Source of the DNA: Nitrospirota bacterium
GTDB lineage: Bacteria; Nitrospirota; 9FT-COMBO-42-15; HDB-SIOI813
Reading direction: 5' to 3'
Assembly: GCA_016212215.1 (NCBI GenBank)
Contig: JACRGV010000131.1
Span: 655 to 64,654, forward strand
DNA: 64,000 bases
The notes beneath the pieces are model-generated. The model searched no databases, was not told the origin of the DNA, and saw nothing but the letters and a program-made list of their open reading frames with translations. Below, piece by piece: positions 10,070 through 43,267 of this stretch (position 1 is the stretch's first letter; each line of letters starts with the position of its first letter). The position numbers and the translations under genes were made by a program.

Positions 10070-10082
10070 TCGTGAGCGGGGT

Positions 10083-10189
10083 GTTCACAAAGGTGCATGA
10101 AAATCAGCGGGACAAGAATGTCCCGCCTATCCTCATAGAAATGGATAGGCGGGGTTTTCTTACCCCGCCGGAGGTATTTTCGGATGAAC
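10083..10189 (+). repeat. Family A repeat, copy A1
   Basis: GTTCACAAAGG..GAAAATCAGCGGGACAAGAATGTCCCGCCTATCC..GGATAGGCGGGGTTTTCTTACCCCGCCGGAGG..TTTTCGGATGAAC. Confidence 0.9.
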
Positions 10190-16619: not shown

Positions 16620-16670
16620 ATGGCAAAGATATTAGGGGAGTTGACCCCTGTGGACATGGTTAAGAAATAA
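16620..16670 (+). CDS. 16-codon upstream ORF coupled to rpoH (MAKILGELTPVDMVKK)
   Basis: A strong SD (AAGGAGGG) sits 7 nt before the ATG. Its TAA overlaps the rpoH ATG (TAATG). Confidence 0.4.
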   Translation: MAKILGELTPVDMVKK

Positions 16671-17707
16671 TGGACAAAGAAAAAGAGATAGAAGAGATTG
16701 AAGAAGATAATGAGGAGGAGGAAGAGGATGAAGAGCCTGATTATCTTTCTATAGAACATACTGGAAAACATATTGAATCCGGCGATGCCGATATAGAGCT
16801 TTCTGATGGAATAGATTATATAGCCGGTATAGATGAACATGCGGCTGACAGATCATTAGTAACTTATGACCCCCTCCAACACTACCTAGCAGAGGTCAGG
16901 AAATACCGCTTCCTGACAAAAGAAGAAGAGCACAGGCTTGCAGTCAAATACAGGGAAGAGGGTGACCTCGATGCTGTATCCAGATTGGTAATGGCAAATT
17001 TAAAGATAGTTGTTGTTATTGCAATGGAGTATAAAAATATTGGAATGAATATGATGGACCTGATTCAGGAAGGAAATCTGGGGCTGATGCAGGCAGTAAA
17101 GAAGTTTGACCCTTACAGAGATATTCGGCTTGTTACTTATGCGGCGTGGTGGGTGAGGGCCTATATTCTTAGATACCTGATCAATAACTGGAGGCTTGTA
17201 AAGATAGGGACAACTCAGGCACAGAGGAAACTGTTTTTTAATTTAATGAAAGAGAAGGCGAGGCTCGAGTCGCTTGGATATGAGGCAGGGCCAAAACTGA
17301 TAGCAAGCGGCCTTGGTGTAAAGGAAAAAGAGGTGATTGAGATGGACCAGCGGCTCGGAAGCCGTGAGATGTCTCTGGATGAACCGGTTAAAGATGATTC
17401 AGAAACATCTTTGATGAGTATAATTCCATCACATGAGCCTGCCATAGATGATAAGCTTGCAGATGAAGAGGTCTCTGCCCTTTTCAAGGAGAAGGTCGCA
17501 GAGTTTATGAAGACAATGAATGAGAGAGACTTAAATATATTACAGAACAGGATACTATCGGAAGAACCAAAGTCCCTCCTTGAAATTGGTGAGTTTTATG
17601 GAATATCGAAAGAGCGTGTTCGCCAGCTTGAGGCAAATATAATAAAGCGGCTCAAAAAATATATTGAGAAGGAGATAAAGGATATTGATGACCTCAGGCC
17701 TGCCTGA
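16670..17707 (+). CDS. rpoH: RNA polymerase sigma factor RpoH (sigma-32-like) with an acidic N-terminal extension
   Basis: Region 2 reads DLIQEGNLGLMQAVKKFDP. An RpoH-box-like QAQRKLFFNL is present. Region 4 reads ISKERVRQLE. Confidence 0.8.
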   Translation: MDKEKEIEEIEEDNEEEEEDEEPDYLSIEHTGKHIESGDADIELSDGIDYIAGIDEHAADRSLVTYDPLQHYLAEVRKYRFLTKEEEHRLAVKYREEGDLDAVSRLVMANLKIVVVIAMEYKNIGMNMMDLIQEGNLGLMQAVKKFDPYRDIRLVTYAAWWVRAYILRYLINNWRLVKIGTTQAQRKLFFNLMKEKARLESLGYEAGPKLIASGLGVKEKEVIEMDQRLGSREMSLDEPVKDDSETSLMSIIPSHEPAIDDKLADEEVSALFKEKVAEFMKTMNERDLNILQNRILSEEPKSLLEIGEFYGISKERVRQLEANIIKRLKKYIEKEIKDIDDLRPA

Positions 17708-18602
17708 TATTGATTTAAATTTAATGGGGAGAACAGCCCTTGTTACAGGCGGGAGTAATGAGATCAGTGGTGCGATTTGTCGAGTCATGGCATCTGCCGG
17801 CGCATCAGTAATTATTCATTACAACAAAAACAGGGAAATTGCAGAGCAGACATGCAAAGATATAATCTCAAGCGGCGGCACAGCAGTTACTTTCAGTACA
17901 GATTTTTCTGATGAAGATTCCATAGACGCTCTTTTCAGCTTTATCAAAGAACGATTCAACCACCTCGACATCCTTGTTAATAATGCCCACCTTCCTCTTA
18001 AAAGAACCTTCCTCAAAGATATAACATGGGAAGAACATCAGGAGCAGATAGACGTTATGGTGAAGGGGACATTCTACTGTTCTAAGAAAGCTATAGAGAT
18101 GATGCGGGAGCCGGTCATGAGCGAGGCGCTCACAAAGGACAATGAAAATGAGTGGGACAAGAATGTCCCACCTATCCTTGATATATATCCGGATAGGCGG
18201 GGTTTTCTTACCCCGCCGGAGGAATTTTCGGGTAAACAGCGTAAAGGCGGCTCAATCATCAACATCCTTACATCACAGACAGAGCATCCTGTAAGCGGCT
18301 ACAGCAGTTATGTAACAGCCGCATCTGCATTAACGGGTTTTACAAGAAATCTTGCTGTAGAGGCGGGATGTATGGGGGTAAGGGTCAACATGATTGCACC
18401 TAACTTTGTCCTTACCTCACATACACCCAACGCACCTCAACACGTCCACGATGCAATTATAAAATCCACACCCCTTGGCCGCCTTGCAACACCGAATGAC
18501 ATAGCAAAGGTTGTCTTATTTTTTGCCTCAGACCTGTCAGAATTTATAACCGGATGCTATTTTGTTGTTGATGGGGGATACGGTTTATCGGGAAGGCGTT
18601 AG
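17685..18602 (+). CDS. Divergent SDR-family protein carrying an in-frame family A repeat
   Basis: TALVTGGS.., NNAH and GGSIINILTS motifs. The expected YxxxK reads YVTAA, so the Lys is absent. About 36 codons (18129-18237) derive from the repeat. Confidence 0.65.
   Translation: MMTSGLPDIDLNLMGRTALVTGGSNEISGAICRVMASAGASVIIHYNKNREIAEQTCKDIISSGGTAVTFSTDFSDEDSIDALFSFIKERFNHLDILVNNAHLPLKRTFLKDITWEEHQEQIDVMVKGTFYCSKKAIEMMREPVMSEALTKDNENEWDKNVPPILDIYPDRRGFLTPPEEFSGKQRKGGSIINILTSQTEHPVSGYSSYVTAASALTGFTRNLAVEAGCMGVRVNMIAPNFVLTSHTPNAPQHVHDAIIKSTPLGRLATPNDIAKVVLFFASDLSEFITGCYFVVDGGYGLSGRR
18129..18237 (+). repeat. Family A repeat, copy A2, inside the SDR CDS
   Basis: CTCACAAAGGACAATGAAAATGAGTGGGACAAGAATGTCCCACCTATCC..GGATAGGCGGGGTTTTCTTACCCCGCCGGAGGAATTTTCGGGTAAAC. 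Confidence 0.9.
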
Positions 18603-18603
18603 G

Positions 18604-18775
18604 AGTTCACTCGAAAATCCCCTCCGGCGGGGTAAGAAAACCCCGCCTATCCATGTGTAAATTTGGGGGAACCCGCCTATCCATGCCTAACCTGAGGATA
18701 GGCGGGACTTTCTTGTCCCGCTGATTTTCATGGCCCTTTGTGAACCCTCGGTTCATGGGAGTTCACCCGAAAATA
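18604..18775 (-). repeat. Family A repeat, copy A3 (reverse orientation, with one arm duplicated)
   Basis: This is the reverse complement of the A consensus, with two GGATAGGCGGG arms. Confidence 0.9.
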
Positions 18776-19302: not shown

Positions 19303-21024
19303 TTAAGCCGGAAGCCTTACAATGACTGATGTTCCGGCTCCAACTGTACTCTTAATTTTAATTGTCCCGTTGTGGGCTTCGATAATCCTCTTTGTAACAG
19401 CAAGTCCAAGACCTAAACCGGTTCCTTTTGTAGTCGTAAATTCAGTAAAGAGGTCTTTTAGTCTATCCGGTGGAATACCCTGTCCGGTATCCTGCAGTTC
19501 AATATCAAGAAAATTATGGGATAATTTAACCGATATAATAAGCTCACCACCCTCCGGCATTGCATCAATAGCATTGCGGATGATATTCTTAAATACCCTC
19601 TCAATTAAAAACTTATCAACTTTGACGTTCATAGGTTCAGTGGGACAATTTGCCTTAACAACTATCGCCTTATTTTCCATCTCTTCCCTGAACATCTCAA
19701 TAATGCCTTTTACCTCTTTGCAAATATTTACAGAGATTAGCATAATCTGAACCGGTTTAGATAAGTCCATCAGGTCATCAAGAAACTGATTTATGTTGGC
19801 AAACTCTCTTGTAACAACCTTTTTAAACGTATTTCTACATTCTTCATTGTCATACATCTTTATCATAAGACGACTGCAATTCTCTATATTCCTGACAGGG
19901 TGCCTCAAATCATGAACAAGACCTGCGGCAATCTTATTCATAAAGGCGATCCTCTCGTTCCGTTTAATATCCTCCTGAAGAACCTTGAGATCAACCATCA
20001 TCTTATTAAACCCTTCGCCTACCTCCTGAAACTCATCACCTGTTTGTATTGAAACCTTCTCTTCAACATTACCACCGGCGACCCTCCTTGTTGCGGCCAG
20101 TAAGTTCTGAAGCGGTTCCAGTATATATCTTCTGCTGCCGGAATATCCTAAAAAAGATGCAGCAGCTATACATAAAATTATCATAACACTAAGAAGAACT
20201 GTCATGCTCCTCGAGGATGCATAAGCCTCTTTTAAAGGTTCTTCAATAATTATTCCCCAGCCGAGTGATGGAATCGGGGCTGCCACACCTATAACATACT
20301 TATCTTCCATGTTTTTATATATATCAGTTGAATAGCCTCCCTTTAACACATCTTTGACTATCTTTAATCGTCTAAGGGTATTATTTGCAAGTACAGGAAT
20401 TTTGTTGTTTCCACCACGACCATGTGCTATCAGTGTGCCGTCCCCTGATACAACAAAGGCATACCCGCTTTCTCCAATCCTGATACTTTCCACTAAACTC
20501 CACAGATGCAAAAGGCTTATATCAGTAACAGCAACCTTCGTGATTGTATTAAGATTTTTTACAGGAACTGCTATAGTTATCTGCGGGACATTATCATTAG
20601 AAAGATATACTTCTGATTTATATACCTCACCTTTAAATGCGCGTTTGAATGCCGTTCCCTTAAACTCCATTTCAGAACCGCTTTTATTGACAGATACCAA
20701 CTCTTTGCCCCGATGGTCCAGAATACAGATATATTTAAATTCCGGAAAGTTTAATAGATAATTACTCAGGATCATCTTTTGCTCTTGCATAGGGATCTGA
20801 AACCTTCCCAGATTTTGCAGGAGGGCGTTCAATATTGACACCCTGTTGATAACATATAAATCAATCTCTTCTGCCGCCCTCTTTGCTGTATTAATATTGC
20901 CGTCTTTAACCACATTTGCATTGAAGTATCTTGACGTCCATATAGACAATATTCCATAGACAATAAGAGGCACAAAAACAGCGATGATAAGTAATAAACT
21001 TAGCTTTGCAGATATACTTTTCAA
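19303..21024 (-). CDS. Sensor histidine kinase (Cache-type periplasmic domain, HAMP, HisKA, HATPase)
   Basis: Two TM segments flank a sensor of about 250 aa. H-box LVHDLRHP, N-box IIRNAIDAM, G-boxes DTGQGI and GTGLGL. Confidence 0.85.
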   Translation of the reverse strand: MKSISAKLSLLLIIAVFVPLIVYGILSIWTSRYFNANVVKDGNINTAKRAAEEIDLYVINRVSILNALLQNLGRFQIPMQEQKMILSNYLLNFPEFKYICILDHRGKELVSVNKSGSEMEFKGTAFKRAFKGEVYKSEVYLSNDNVPQITIAVPVKNLNTITKVAVTDISLLHLWSLVESIRIGESGYAFVVSGDGTLIAHGRGGNNKIPVLANNTLRRLKIVKDVLKGGYSTDIYKNMEDKYVIGVAAPIPSLGWGIIIEEPLKEAYASSRSMTVLLSVMIILCIAAASFLGYSGSRRYILEPLQNLLAATRRVAGGNVEEKVSIQTGDEFQEVGEGFNKMMVDLKVLQEDIKRNERIAFMNKIAAGLVHDLRHPVRNIENCSRLMIKMYDNEECRNTFKKVVTREFANINQFLDDLMDLSKPVQIMLISVNICKEVKGIIEMFREEMENKAIVVKANCPTEPMNVKVDKFLIERVFKNIIRNAIDAMPEGGELIISVKLSHNFLDIELQDTGQGIPPDRLKDLFTEFTTTKGTGLGLGLAVTKRIIEAHNGTIKIKSTVGAGTSVIVRLPA

Positions 21025-26787: not shown

Positions 26788-26853
26788 CGGACGAAAATTC
26801 CCTCCCCTTCAAGGGGAGGGTTAGGGTGGGGATGGGGTTGATTTTCGGATGAA
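26788..26853 (+). repeat. Family B hairpin repeat ending in GATTTTCGGATGAA
   Basis: CGGACGAAAATTCCCTCCCCTTCAAGGGGAGGGTTAGGGTGGGGATGGGGTTGATTTTCGGATGAA. It contains the mreD ATG. Confidence 0.9.
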
Positions 26854-30964: not shown

Positions 30965-32788
30965 ATGTCTTATCAGGTTCTCGCAAGAAAGTGGCGTCCA
31001 AATACATTTCAGGAACTTACCGGCCAGGGGCATGTATCAAAGACAATTGAAAATGCTATAAAGTCTGAACGTATTGCCCATGCCTATTTATTCTCAGGGG
31101 TCAGAGGTGTCGGGAAGACTACTGTGGCAAGGATACTTGCCAAGTCTTTAAACTGTGCTGAAGGCCCGACCGCAATCCCATGTATGAAGTGTCAATCCTG
31201 TCATGAGATTACCGGAGGTTATGCAGTAGACGTAGTAGAGATAGATGGTGCATCTCATACAGGTGTGGATAATATAAGGGAGCTTCAGGAGAATGCTCAG
31301 TATGCCCCGCTCAGAGGCCGCTACAAGATATACATAATTGATGAAGTCCACATGCTGTCTACCTCAGCATTTAATGCCCTGCTGAAGATACTGGAAGAAC
31401 CGCCTCCACACATTGTCTTTATTTTTGCCACAACAGAGCCTCATAAGATTCCTGCTACAATACACTCAAGGTGCCAGACCTACCAGTTCCGCAGGATTAG
31501 TTATAAGGAGATAATGGAGAGGCTTCAATTCATCCTCCATGAGGAGGGTATCAAGGCCGGTGAATCCGCACTCTCTATTGTGGCAAGGGCATCTGACGGA
31601 AGCATGAGGGATGCACTCAGCCTTCTTGATCAGGTGATTGCCTATACCGGCGAAAATATCACTGATGAGGATGTGGCGTGGATACTTGGTACGGCGGAGC
31701 ATCTTACAGTCCATCTTATACAACACATTCTTAACAAAGATTCAGCAGGGGCATTGAACATATTAAAAGAGTTATCAGACGGCGGCTATGATATCAAGCA
31801 GTTCCTCCTTAATATTGTTGAACATATAAGAAATCTTACGATGATAAAACTTGGGGTTGGAGGGGATGTGATAGACCTCCCGTCAGAAGAAATTGCAGCG
31901 GCTTCAAAATTGGCAGAAGGTGTTCCTATTGAAGATTTCCAGAGGCTGTTCGGGATATTTTCATCCGCCCTTGAAGAGATGCGCTGGTTCCCATATCCGA
32001 GATTCTCACTTGAGATGGCTGTGATAAAGGCATCAAACATGAGGCCGGTTGTCCCTGTAGATGACCTGCTTGCAAAATTACAGGATATAGAACATCGTAT
32101 GGTATCCGGTGTGCCGCCAATGGGTCTAAAGGGTGGTGAAAATCAGCGGGACAAGAATGTCCCGCCTATCCTCAATTTAGGCGTGGATAGGCGAGGTGTT
32201 CCAACCACGCCGGAGGGATTTTCGGGTAAAGCATCTATGCGTGTACCACTCACAAAGGACGATGAAGATTCCCTCCCCTTCAAGGGGAGGGTTAGGGTGG
32301 GGATGGGGTTATCTTCTGATGAAAACAAGCAGGAAACATCAGATAATCAGGCCATGCCTATTAAAGATGAAAGTGATTTAAAATCAGTATGGAAGAGCAT
32401 AGTGGGAAGGATATTAGAGCGAAAGCCGAGCCTTGGCTCTTATATTGAGCAGAGTATACCGCTTGGAATTTCTGAAGGGATACTGACTATCGGTTTTAAC
32501 GGCGGCGCTTCTGTGTTCATAACCTTATTAGACAGGAAGGATAGTAAAGACTATATCCTTGAAGTTGTTAAAGGTTATATGCAGGGAGTCAGCGGGATAA
32601 GATTTACTACAGCGTCAGATAAAACAGAGAACAACCCTGCACCGGCGTATGAAGAGTATGTTGCCACAGCACATGAAAAACAACAGGAAGAGGTGGATGA
32701 TGCATTCTCAGACCCTATTGTTCAGGAGGCAATTGATATTTTAGGCGGAGAACTTGTAGAATTAAGGAATAAAAAGCAGATTAATTAA
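30965..32788 (+). CDS. dnaX: DNA polymerase III subunit gamma/tau, with in-frame family A and B repeats in the post-domain-III linker
   Basis: GVRGVGKTT Walker A, Zn module CMKCQSC, DEVHML, SRCQ. Repeat-derived codons occupy 32126-32310. Confidence 0.9.
   Translation: MSYQVLARKWRPNTFQELTGQGHVSKTIENAIKSERIAHAYLFSGVRGVGKTTVARILAKSLNCAEGPTAIPCMKCQSCHEITGGYAVDVVEIDGASHTGVDNIRELQENAQYAPLRGRYKIYIIDEVHMLSTSAFNALLKILEEPPPHIVFIFATTEPHKIPATIHSRCQTYQFRRISYKEIMERLQFILHEEGIKAGESALSIVARASDGSMRDALSLLDQVIAYTGENITDEDVAWILGTAEHLTVHLIQHILNKDSAGALNILKELSDGGYDIKQFLLNIVEHIRNLTMIKLGVGGDVIDLPSEEIAAASKLAEGVPIEDFQRLFGIFSSALEEMRWFPYPRFSLEMAVIKASNMRPVVPVDDLLAKLQDIEHRMVSGVPPMGLKGGENQRDKNVPPILNLGVDRRGVPTTPEGFSGKASMRVPLTKDDEDSLPFKGRVRVGMGLSSDENKQETSDNQAMPIKDESDLKSVWKSIVGRILERKPSLGSYIEQSIPLGISEGILTIGFNGGASVFITLLDRKDSKDYILEVVKGYMQGVSGIRFTTASDKTENNPAPAYEEYVATAHEKQQEEVDDAFSDPIVQEAIDILGGELVELRNKKQIN
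32126..32229 (+). repeat. Family A repeat, copy A5, inside dnaX
   Basis: GGTGAAAATCAGCGGGACAAGAATGTCCCGCCTATCC..GGATAGGCGAGGTGTTCCAACCACGCCGGAGGGATTTTCGGGTAAA. Confidence 0.9.
32261..32310 (+). repeat. Family B repeat inside dnaX
   Basis: GATGAAGATTCCCTCCCCTTCAAGGGGAGGGTTAGGGTGGGGATGGGGTT. From ATTCCC onward it is identical to the intergenic copy at 26797-26839. Confidence 0.9.
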
Positions 32789-33188: not shown

Positions 33189-33326
33189 GGATTTTCGGGT
33201 GAACTCATATGAGCCGAGGGTTCACAAAGGGCCATGAAAATCAGCGGGACAAGAAAGTCCCGCCTATCCTCGTAGAAATGGATAGGCGGGGTTTTCTTAC
33301 CCCGCCGTAGAGGATTTCCGGATGAA
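33189..33326 (+). repeat. Family A repeat, copy A6 (full length)
   Basis: GGATTTTCGGGTGAAC..GTTCACAAAGGGCCATGAAAATCAGCGGGAC..CCCGCCGTAGAGGATTTCCGGATGAA. It contains the recR ATG. Confidence 0.9.
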
Positions 33327-33909
33327 AGACAATTTATTTAATCATTTAATTGAGCAATTGAAAAAATTTCCAGGCGTTGGCCAGAAGACTGCTCAGCGGC
33401 TTGCTTTCTTCCTATTAAAAGCAAATGCGGATGATGCAAAGGCGATAGCAGAGGCTATTATTGCAGTTAAGGATAATATCCGATTCTGTTCAGTATGTAA
33501 TAATATTACCGAAGAAGACCCGTGCCGTATTTGCAGTGATTCTAACAGGGACAGGAAAAAGATACTTGTTGTGAAAGAGCCAAGCACCCTTTACACAATC
33601 GAACGTACAGGCGGTTACAAAGGCTTATACCATGTCATGTTAGGTACAATATCCCCTTTGGATGGGATAGGCCCGGATGATATAAAGATTGCCGGATTAT
33701 TAAAGAGAGTTGAACAGGATGCAATCGAAGAGGTAATACTTGCCCTTGATCCTGACATGGCAGGAGAGGCGACCGCCATGTATCTTACACGCCTGCTGAA
33801 ACCTTTTGAGGTACACGTAACCCGTATTGCCTACGGTATACCGGTCGGCAGTGATATTGAATATGCCGATGAACTCACTCTTGTTAAATCCCTTGAAGGC
33901 AGAAGGTGA
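33322..33909 (+). CDS. recR: Recombination protein RecR
   Basis: LKKFPGVGQKTAQRLAFFLL HhH motif, C4 zinc finger CSVC..CRIC, and a Toprim domain. Confidence 0.9.
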   Translation: MKDNLFNHLIEQLKKFPGVGQKTAQRLAFFLLKANADDAKAIAEAIIAVKDNIRFCSVCNNITEEDPCRICSDSNRDRKKILVVKEPSTLYTIERTGGYKGLYHVMLGTISPLDGIGPDDIKIAGLLKRVEQDAIEEVILALDPDMAGEATAMYLTRLLKPFEVHVTRIAYGIPVGSDIEYADELTLVKSLEGRR

Positions 33910-43000: not shown

Positions 43001-43267
43001 GCAGGAGATGCAGGGGTCTGTGTATCTGGCATGGACGCCCTGTTTGTTCTTTATCTTAATCGCCAGTTTATCGTGACAATCAAGACAATTGCTGTCCGGA
43101 ACCCCGCCTCTCAGCTTATGACATTTTGTACAATTGGAAATGCCTTCGAATTTTGCATGAGGGGCCGCCAGCTTGCCGGGGCTTATGAGAGTCTCCATAC
43201 TGTCCTGAGCAAAGGAAGCTGACGAGATGAGGAGAAAACTTAGTAAGAAAAATATATATTTGTTCAT
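40079..43267 (-). CDS. Giant multiheme c-type cytochrome (cytochrome c3/c7-like repeats), secreted
   Basis: Signal peptide MNKYIFFLLSFLLISSASFA. My manual count is about 41 CxxCH plus 4 C-x4-CH (CNSADCH) motifs. There are internal tandem modules of about 71 aa and about 47 aa. Confidence 0.9.
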   Translation of the reverse strand: MNKYIFFLLSFLLISSASFAQDSMETLISPGKLAAPHAKFEGISNCTKCHKLRGGVPDSNCLDCHDKLAIKIKNKQGVHARYTDPCISCHSDHKGRGYQMISLDEKKFDHKLTDYPLEDKHAETSCNKCHKKSGVYTGLKQDCLSCHKDYHNSQLDKDCSRCHNIKGWKDIKKFNHNTNSKYILADKHIEVKCAKCHTKGRYKPLNYKTCNSADCHTDPHKKQLAGKTCESCHTTKGWKTILFDHNAPEYKGYKLDGKHLKVECEKCHTKGRFKPLNYKTCNSSDCHNDPHKKQFEGKTCESCHTTMDWKSVLFDHNAPAYKGYKLEDKHLKVDCEKCHTKGRYKPLNFKTCNSADCHTDPHKKQFEGKTCESCHTTKGWQTTSFDHNATAYKGYKMEGKHIEVKCEKCHTKGRYKPLKYKTCDSADCHTDPHKKQFADKTCESCHVTKDWKSILFEHNAPEYKGYKLDGKHLKTDCEKCHADGKYRPIEQECLTCHKKDDVHKEELGKNCKKCHTTEDWKKTTLNHNLQTKFPLIGKHKDTECEKCHKEKRYKTKAERCVDCHKDIHKGEFKEECSSCHTQFDWEARKFDHKKRTGFELKGLHNDVPCNYCHKSKDNYKKVNRYCNQCHTDPHLNQFGSIECSKCHSQNSWQAVGFRHNDTGFPLSGKHRDAECQECHKNRQYRGTSSVCVNCHLSTYYSAPNHLLRAYSQDCTQCHNVSAASWSFKHINITGTTSNCSNCHLSAKPLSHTANPAAYPDTCETCHTSIVSWGSRKHTSVTTGCAACHSSYSNPQKPASHTANTWTTCETCHKYPAWAFTHPSAITDCSTCHLTYSNPVKPSSHPANNWTKCGSCHTFTQGASWSFTHPTAKTGCSTCHTSYSTPKKPGDHTTNNWTTCENCHKSTTAWTFSHSISTSGCSVCHTSYSTPAKPTSHTTNNWTTCEDCHKSTTAWTFTHSAVKSGCSTCHATKSTPAKPADHTANNWTTCETCHKSTTTWTFTHPSTTFPLNHRGTNPADCAACHPAVAYKNSGGCTTCHGNEHKKNYTNSQCLNCHPTGRGD

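Follow-up and report, generated by a model that had tools for sequence, protein, structure and literature searches.

The window analysed here is a 64,000-nt stretch of contig JACRGV010000131.1 from a Nitrospirota bacterium (GCA_016212215.1). It contains a gene of the short-chain dehydrogenase/reductase (SDR) family, lying at the end of rpoH, whose reading frame runs without interruption through a copy of an interspersed palindromic repeat, called family A in what follows. The open reading frame (ORF) could start at TTG 17685 or at ATG 17688 and stops at 18602. The ATG is the likelier start, as it matches all of the orthologues, whose proteins begin MTS..., and the product has 305 residues. The gene, its upstream neighbour and the parts of the insert are as follows.

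17688 to 18602, forward strand: SDR-family gene with a FabG-like fold, host of the insert (from Pfam, orthologue starts, AlphaFold2 and Foldseek)
16670 to 17707: rpoH, whose stop overlaps the start of the SDR gene by 20 nt
18111 to 18236, forward strand: family A copy, in frame, 42 codons, residues 143-184, PVMSEALTKDNENEWDKNVPPILDIYPDRRGFLTPPEEFSGK (from codon alignment with empty-site orthologues)
18152 to 18171, forward strand: left hairpin resembling repetitive extragenic palindromic (REP) sequences, GTGGGAC-AAGAAT-GTCCCAC (from the sequence; stem kept in the RNA fold)
18196 to 18217, forward strand: right REP-like hairpin, GGCGGGG-TTTTCTTA-CCCCGCC, with GGATA before it, an inverted relative of the left hairpin
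18223 to 18237, forward strand: terminal linker module AATTTTCGGGTAAAC, for which the family consensus is GATTTTCGGRTGAAC, translated as FSGK

The Insert and the Fold of its Host

The insert in the SDR gene measures 126 nt, and element-like sequence spans ~18103 to 18237. The insertion junction is ambiguous by ~7 nt because the end of the element and the host site both carry GGTRAAC; the last 7 nt of the linker in this copy are identical to the sequence at the empty sites of relatives. An earlier note, made from the window's letters, had placed the insert at 18129-18237. Codon alignment moves the 5' edge 18 nt further left, to 18111. The left hairpin belongs to a subfamily in which a paired C:G to T:A change leads the element to encode W and not R (5 genic and 20 non-genic copies). 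The copy is 83% identical to the family consensus and folds far better than shuffled sequences (z -3.6; the consensus gives z -2.8).

The protein reads ...AIEMMRE-PVMSEALTKDNENEWDKNVPPILDIYPDRRGFLTPPEEFSGK-QRKGGSIINILTS..., and its matches to the Pfam families adh_short_C2 (E 9e-50) and adh_short (E 1e-36) are each broken into two stretches, residues 17-141 and 186-299, with PVMSEALTKDNENEWDKNVPPILDIYPDRRGFLTPPEEFSGK as the unmatched middle. In an AlphaFold2 model built on an alignment of 89 sequences, the mean predicted local distance difference test (pLDDT) score is 87.5, with 231 residues at 90 or higher and the core above 90. Residues ~142-188 have a pLDDT of 49-67 and are without secondary structure. 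They are flanked by a helix (115-141) and a strand (189-194), which agrees with the earlier placement of the insert between the helix ending AIEMMRE and the strand GGSIINI. Foldseek template modelling (TM) scores against FabG-type crystal structures are 0.92-0.93 when normalised to the target and 0.74-0.76 when normalised to the query, a gap that is expected for an intact core with ~45 looped-out residues. By its Pfam E-values and Foldseek TM scores, the host protein has a Rossmann-type SDR fold. We are confident, from the model, that the insert is predicted to form an unstructured loop between helix alphaE and strand betaE, with the rest of the protein in a FabG-like fold; that this surface position is compatible with the fold is an AlphaFold2 prediction only. 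The connections from helix to strand in Rossmann folds are on the side opposite to the edge that binds the cofactor, and general SDR topology would place the loop where it faces away from the cofactor and the active site. The inserted peptide is hydrophilic (grand average of hydropathy -0.96) and contains 6 Pro.

Empty Sites in Relatives

The SDR protein was compared with a set of 120 homologues, the nearest of which reach a BLAST identity of 68-73% across the full query (78-83% in aligned columns) and have 257-287 residues, as against 305 in the window. In P0005, P0006, P0007 and all of the more distant orthologues, no residues stand between ...(S/K)E and (Q/N)R.GGSIINI. Codon alignment with contigs of four relatives, all with rpoH upstream, yields the empty sites AGT GAA|CAA CGT and AAA GAA|AAT CGG, and groundwater metagenome contigs of the relatives have 24 or 34 nt where the window has 153 or 163. 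The SDR match is continuous in the five family-level genomes that contain the gene and split (1-141 and 141-259) in the window's own genome. Empty sites have thus been seen in two close relatives and five family genomes. None of the near or distant orthologues examined carries the family A insert; its presence in distant orthologues without the repeat was one of two findings that the earlier note had named as overturning its account, the other being a Lys aligned at the catalytic position, which is not seen either.

Family A itself has expanded only in this species, with about ten diverged matches in a genome of the same genus and only hairpin fragments in other genomes of the family. On this comparison of sequences, the insertion is a recent one that probably arose in the lineage of this species.

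Architecture and Abundance of Family A

The 32-nt core GGATAGGCGGGGTTTTCTTACCCCGCCGGAGG occurs five times in the window as opposed to zero times in 100 shuffles, and six family A copies in the window align over ~125 nt. A profile built for nhmmer finds 608 matches in the genome (2.99 Mb in 164 contigs), which collapse to 359 distinct loci after reverse-strand self-matches of the palindrome are dropped; ~250 of these are full length. Many of the intergenic copies are 95-98% identical to the consensus. The element is ~123-126 nt long and consists of two related hairpins in inverted arrangement, GCGGGAC...GTCCCGC-CTATCC and GGATAG-GCGGGGT...ACCCCGC, along with outer inverted repeats and the terminal motif GATTTTCGGRTGAAC. 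Like MITEs (transposable elements of the miniature inverted-repeat type), it has terminal inverted repeats, with GTTCAC..GAAAATC close to the left end and GATTTTC..GTGAAC at the right one. The SDR copy is a member of this interspersed palindromic family of 100-150 bp. Other copies in the window that bear on its reading are listed below.

10073 to 10189: copy A1, open in the frame used in the SDR gene and dnaX
18603 to 18775, reverse strand: intergenic family A copy right after the SDR stop, with an extra inner hairpin unit (from the sequence)
32128 to 32230, forward strand: family A copy in dnaX (30965-32788), in the same frame
32261 to 32310: family B module after the dnaX family A copy
33189 to 33339: copy A6, with CCG TAG in the SDR/dnaX frame

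The dnaX copy reads GENQRDKNVPPILNLGVDRRGVPTTPEGFSGK, in the same frame as in the SDR gene. The proposal that the SDR gene contains a family A copy that would be translated in the dnaX frame is upheld, and A1 is open and A6 interrupted in that frame just as had been reported. The copy that follows the SDR stop has the same sense as the convergent histidine-kinase gene (19303-21024). Its extra inner hairpin unit is ~40 nt long (18652-18695); contigs of the source sample skip 39-40 nt there and may derive from other, canonical family A copies.

Genic copies are more divergent than non-genic ones, with 83% versus 91% identity to the consensus (p = 6e-11). They also differ in the spacer between the two hairpins, which is 10 nt long in 168 of 221 non-genic copies and 13 nt long in 18 of 25 genic versus 41 of 221 non-genic copies. 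The 13-nt variant may mark an older subfamily. Both the divergence of genic copies and their enrichment in 13-nt spacers fit older insertions, which would be removable only by precise deletion.

Family A in Conserved Genes

All family A matches were scanned in six frames for reading frames that pass through the element and stay open for 40 codons or more to either side of it. Thirty-five distinct long ORFs (274-2502 residues) carry a copy, and all of them read it in one frame, ...TKGHENQRDKNVPPIL..DRRGF(L/P)TPPEGFS.... According to Pfam, the hosts include ValRS, PheS, DNA polymerase I, a family B polymerase, DnaX, Fmt, MutL, UvrD/PcrA, an AddB-like helicase-nuclease, CobU, uracil-DNA glycosylase, NagZ and a PyrK-like protein with two copies. 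Further hosts are a NadB-like flavoprotein, a P-type ATPase, an SLT transglycosylase, FliK, two radical SAM enzymes, a histidine kinase and several large repeat proteins. In at least 22 hosts Pfam domains flank the insert on both sides, and the domains that are themselves split by inserts are SDR, CobU, Formyl_trans_C, UvrD-helicase, DNA_pol_B and CTP_transf_like. ORFs that pass through the element in other frames are, with one exception, 106-236 residues long and probably spurious. The exception is a frame of 1418 codons with the copy 62 codons from the upstream stop, and here the copy probably precedes the true start.

Several hosts have more complex inserts. Composites of a G-rich family B module followed by family A, both in frame, occur in CobU (L002:439-696), Fmt (L012, residues ~277-352), an FG-GAP/HEAT protein (L007) and dnaX (32128-32310). 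CobU gains 84 residues in this way, and the composite inserts are missing from the genome of the same genus. Two family A-derived segments each, in tandem or separate, are found in L009 (PyrK-like), L016 (NagZ), L024 (SLT) and L026 (MutL). Four adjacent tandem TPR paralogues (L030-L033, contig C155) have in common a degenerate A-derived segment, IQRDKNVPPIDSRGFLTP(TFVDSRGFLTP), and that insertion is apparently older than the gene duplications. PolA has 954-960 residues in L051 (genome G002) and L052 (genome G009), as against 883-894 in the remaining family genomes. These two proteins are matched continuously across the region of the PolA insert of the window's genome, and they may carry insertions of their own at the same linker.

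One Reading Frame and a Preferred Orientation

A canonical intergenic copy reads IFG*-T.M(N/S)RGFTKGHENQRDK(K/N)VPPILVEMDRRGFLTPPEG-IFG*. This is a core of 41 codons bounded at both ends by the TGA of GGGTGAAC, which is present in about half of the copies at each end. The core is free of internal stops in at least ~71% of non-genic copies (stops in at most ~29%), while only 76 of 220 full copies, and ~27% of the non-genic ones, are open from end to end in the SDR/dnaX frame. The view that the family is largely compatible with translation is thus sound for the core and too generous for the whole element. Closure of intergenic copies in the genic frame is due to the TGA of the linker motif. Spacer length modulo 3 was considered as a cause and rejected, as the spacers are nearly all 10 or 13 nt, both of them 1 mod 3 and both frame-keeping. 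The genic copies all belong to a variant that lacks 1 nt ahead of the right linker and reads EGFSGE in place of EGIFG*; this variant is also found between genes.

Of the 220 full-length copies, none is open in frame +2 or -2, and 15 are open in frame +1. Where an intergenic copy is flanked by co-directional genes, it follows their sense in 112 cases and opposes it in 10 (p = 6e-23). The use of a single frame in genes is explained by these two properties, as the elements almost always follow the local sense of transcription and, in that orientation, stops close the other two frames. Replication-strand bias was tried as a cause of the orientation and set aside: concordance with GC skew is 81% (79% for genes), versus 92% with the direction of the flanking genes, although skew in 20-kb windows is confounded by coding-strand composition and the comparison is not decisive.

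Origin and Tolerance of the Insert

Taken together, these observations make it very likely that a non-autonomous palindromic repeat inserted in frame into the SDR gene and persists there as tolerated selfish DNA rather than as a functional domain. In this account, family A would have entered the connection between helix alphaE and strand betaE within this species' lineage. Survival of the gene could have four reasons. The inserted length is divisible by three; the copy is of the variant without an in-frame stop; the 42-residue peptide is hydrophilic, proline-rich and predicted to be unstructured; and the loop would be on that side of the Rossmann fold which faces away from the cofactor site. 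Presumably the insert is translated with the rest of the protein, and its effect is likely to be neutral or slightly harmful.

Several points weigh against this account. The enrichment of 13-nt spacers in genes is not explained by it. Although 150 of 220 copies are open in antisense frame -0, at most one genic copy is read in it; from the 8% antisense rate between genes, ~7 antisense genic copies would be predicted. The antisense peptide has a hydrophobic stretch (maximal 9-residue hydropathy of 2.26 versus 0.93) and a Cys, and it is probably also selected against. No match to the REP-associated tyrosine transposase (RAYT)/Y1 family (PF01797) was found in the genome, which is estimated to be 100% complete, with positive controls in 6 of 14 genomes. 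The host has undergone a lineage-specific change from ETGA to EISG, which could hint at a changed function in the lineage of the window. Finally, the sequencing runs that hold the SDR locus are all DNA metagenomes, with no RNA run among them.

A Shared Linker and a Possible Insertion Hot Spot

At the exact SDR junction, another insert, G/C-rich and 45 nt long, is present in P0002 and P0003, and P0004 has a third one of ~80 nt. The P0004 insert matches 181 loci in the window's genome (up to 97.6% identity over 41 nt) and the P0002 insert matches 11; judged by these matches, the inserts of P0002/P0003 and P0004 are members of other interspersed repeat families. The repeat in P0004 begins right after GGTGAAC and that in P0002/P0003 right after AGTGAA. 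The empty sites read (A/G)GT GAA CA(A/G) in close relatives and GGT AAA CAT, GGG AAA CAG, GCA AAA CAT and TCC GAA CAT in family genomes, and the window element ends in GGT AAA C.

Every repeat family of the genome, be it A, a G-rich B type or another, ends in the linker ATTTTCGGRTGAAC, through which modules are chained head to tail into mosaics and tandem arrays (e.g., 18603-18620, 26840-26852 and 43250-43265). The same linker motif is present on both sides of copies and could be a duplication, a target or a part of the element. It has ~810 matches in the genome versus ~100 for shuffled motifs, and 117 linker ATGs open frames of at least 100 codons. The linker would double as a ribosome-binding site and ATG start for downstream genes.

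An extension of tolerated in-frame insertion, which would add to that explanation and not replace it, is a targeted hot spot: modules would insert beside linker-like sequence, and the SDR codons spell the motif, leading to repeated independent insertions. We regard this as a real possibility that falls somewhat short of being probable. The codons of the SDR loop, Gly/Ser-Glu/Lys-Gln/His, read GGT RAA CAN and so spell the motif, as is seen when the empty sites ATG GGT GAA CAG, TTG AGT GAA CAA and ATG GGT AAA CAT are set against the end of the element, GGT AAA C. The frequency of exact GGTRAAC in coding sequence, counted on the sense strand, is 1.3e-4 per nt. Compared with GGRTGAAC, the SDR empty sites have 0-1 mismatches, a closeness that random genic sites attain with P = 0.0004-0.012. 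P0004 and P0002/P0003 bear different repeats directly after the motif at this site, and the same motif links intergenic modules head to tail. The match is statistically convincing at the SDR site only, however. In the same ungapped 8-mer test at the empty sites of other hosts, PolA is marginal with 2 mismatches (P ~0.11) and CobU and ValRS, with 3 mismatches each, are not significant; the linker regions of Fmt, uracil-DNA glycosylase and UvrD are too divergent for empty-site alignment. The test was also framed after the SDR site had been seen, a permissive loop combined with very many insertions could yield the recurrence, and some of the linker-like empty sites could be excision footprints.

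A broader scenario can be put forward tentatively, and we consider it rather doubtful. Mosaic modules that share the 13-15-nt linker ATTTTCGGRTGAAC, a portable ribosome-binding site and start, might spread independently of RAYTs and specifically in the sense of transcription, homing to linker-like sites that include genic Gly/Ser/Asp-Glu codons. The same junction would then have been hit independently in sister lineages, and ~35 proteins, many of them essential, would have gained a disordered peptide of 40 residues.

A Host Without the Catalytic Tetrad

The host protein is itself unusual in two motifs.

17763 to 17771, forward strand: Ile-Ser-Gly in the cofactor glycine motif, where all close relatives have Thr-Gly-Ala/Val/Ser (from codon alignment)
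18309 to 18323, forward strand: Tyr209-Val-Thr-Ala-Ala213 at the YxxxK position, with Ala for the catalytic Lys (from alignment with the clade and with FabG 4jro and 2uvd)

In alignments with FabG 4jro and 2uvd and with Lys-bearing homologues, Tyr209 falls on the catalytic Tyr and Ala213 on the catalytic Lys, so that the YVTAA reported for YxxxK is real and no Lys aligns at that position. In place of the catalytic tetrad Asn-Ser-Tyr-Lys, the protein has Met, Thr, Tyr209 (Phe in several clade members) and Ala213, the positions being assigned from alignments and textbook knowledge of SDRs. The cofactor motif TGxxxGxG is likewise absent: Glu takes the place of the middle Gly in the TGGSNETG of the clade, and the window has TGGSNEISG. 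The Lys to Ala, Asn to Met and Ser to Thr changes and the Glu of the glycine motif are common to the whole orthologous clade, down to ~45% identity; the clade members with Ala come from metagenome-assembled genomes labelled Nitrospirota, Thermodesulfobacteriota and Nitrospinae. The odd glycine motif noticed earlier is also genuine: codon alignment shows that TGGSNEISGA differs from the TGGSNETGAA of the clade by three point changes in consecutive codons, which move the Gly by one position in this genome only.

It has been suggested that the host is under relaxed or altered constraint. The constraint is altered, and was so before the insertion, but relaxation is not supported, given that loss of the Lys is clade-wide and purifying selection is equal with and without the insert. 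The pairwise ratio of nonsynonymous to synonymous substitution rates (dN/dS) is 0.146-0.228 for pairs that include the window gene and 0.149-0.233 for pairs that do not, and dN to relatives is not raised for the window gene (0.109-0.116 versus 0.090-0.120). That catalytic residues are missing is an old condition of this non-canonical SDR-like protein, one kept under selection, which arose before the insertion and independently of it. The SDR-like gene has rpoH directly upstream or overlapping it in each of the family genomes examined, and the protein may be a non-catalytic partner or sensor linked to sigma-32. The strongly conserved clade of tetrad-less SDR-like proteins beside or overlapping rpoH is of interest in itself.

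Such a protein may act by binding, and the insert could have been recruited as a new surface loop for partner binding or regulation. The insert has been kept open with its hairpins intact, and the same peptide is present in 35 proteins. Recruitment is nonetheless improbable: no orthologue has the insert, not even close ones subject to the same constraint, disorder is predicted for it, the same peptide sits at linkers of unrelated housekeeping enzymes, and genic copies drift from the consensus. Still less likely, and largely refuted, is that the SDR gene is decaying under relaxed constraint and tolerates the insert for that reason. The missing catalytic Lys and the odd glycine motif with its lineage-specific EISG would be in keeping with decay; however, the Lys loss is conserved throughout the clade, dN/dS is ~0.2 with dN to relatives not raised, the SDR ORF is intact and its synteny with rpoH kept, and essential genes (ValRS, PheS, DnaX, PolA and Fmt) bear the same insert. 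That a repeat copy was misplaced into the SDR gene during assembly is hardly credible, for although family A is very abundant, contigs often end in it and the Logan contigs of the probable source sample are broken within the element, independent contigs of the main depth (~28-31x) run mismatch-free from each flank into the element (17700-18140 and 18199-18634), the sole joint that skips the insert has a depth of 5, and the SDR copy has substitutions of its own and is exactly 126 nt long and in frame.

Relation to Known Repeat Systems

In-frame palindromic repeats in conserved genes are known in principle, and best from Rickettsia. Rickettsia palindromic elements (RPEs) of 105-150 bp lie in frame in 19 R. 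conorii genes, and for one host, guanylate kinase (gmk), the insert-bearing protein is reported to be translated and active (PMC2229807, PMC10969869). RPE-1 to RPE-3 go back to Ogata et al. 2000, as summarised in PMC2229807, PMC10969869 and PMC3767692, and insertion hot spots for RPEs are discussed in the last (PMC3767692). Like RPEs, family A is palindromic, 100-150 bp long, found both between genes and in frame in conserved genes, and encodes a conserved peptide. Like them, too, it is absent from orthologues, is tolerated at surface positions and occupies dozens of hosts that include housekeeping enzymes. Two traits typical of RPEs are seen directly here, namely a copy in a conserved gene that keeps the frame, has no stop and is missing from orthologues, and recurrence in many unrelated genes in one frame (35 host ORFs). 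There are also differences. The host of family A is a free-living groundwater Nitrospirota with a 3-Mb genome, while that of RPEs is a reduced, obligate intracellular alphaproteobacterium. Unlike RPEs, family A is modular, with two REP-like hairpins and a linker common to other repeat families, is strongly sense-oriented even between genes, has a linker that would double as ribosome-binding site and ATG, and shows recurrent hits by repeats at one codon, that of its SDR site. Family A thus works like an RPE as a functional class; given the different phylum and the lack of a common motif, homology to RPE-1 to RPE-10 is unlikely.

REP sequences and their paired forms (REPINs) are the second point of comparison. 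Family A has two related, inverted hairpins of ~25 nt, a short conserved 5' tag (GGATAG-GCGGGG...) and hundreds of copies, as they do. Assignment to a REP/REPIN-RAYT system was considered and rejected, as the two-hairpin architecture resembles a REPIN but the genome has no RAYT. The tag is ATAG and not GTAG or CGTC, the 35 intragenic copies depart from the extragenic location of REPINs despite the inverted pairs of REP hairpins, and family A has outer inverted and direct repeats and forms head-to-tail mosaics.

ERIC, the 107-bp form of Correia and YPAL occur fused in frame to genes (Delihas 2007, PMC2229807). With these MITEs, family A shares a small, non-autonomous form, terminal inverted repeats and long stem-loops, and in both cases stop-free forms are found in genes and stop-bearing forms between them. 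It differs in that neither a TA target duplication nor a parent insertion sequence was found, in its far larger number of conserved housekeeping hosts than is reported for them, and in combining open and stop-bearing ends in one family. A scan for inverted linker pairs 0.7-3.5 kb apart, the only search made for a parent insertion sequence, gave 72 pairs, mostly with ordinary genes between repeats. Finally, the mycobacterial MIRUs are likewise sense-oriented intercistronic repeats with ends that overlap the stop and start codons of flanking genes. However, MIRUs are tandem, minisatellite-like units between genes, whereas family A is palindromic and read inside enzymes.

Implications

Inserts of this kind split Pfam domains and lengthen proteins by 40-90 residues, and in annotation they are not to be taken as signs of pseudogenisation. 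The 35 hosts constitute a natural map of positions that tolerate a disordered insertion of 40 residues. Three repeat types at one codon, an empty site that equals the end motif of the element and a sense orientation of 92% together offer a handle on movement that is free of RAYTs. Ultimately, the colonisation of genes in frame by palindromic repeats is not peculiar to reduced intracellular genomes, and it is found here, on a comparable or larger scale, in a free-living, uncultured groundwater Nitrospirota.

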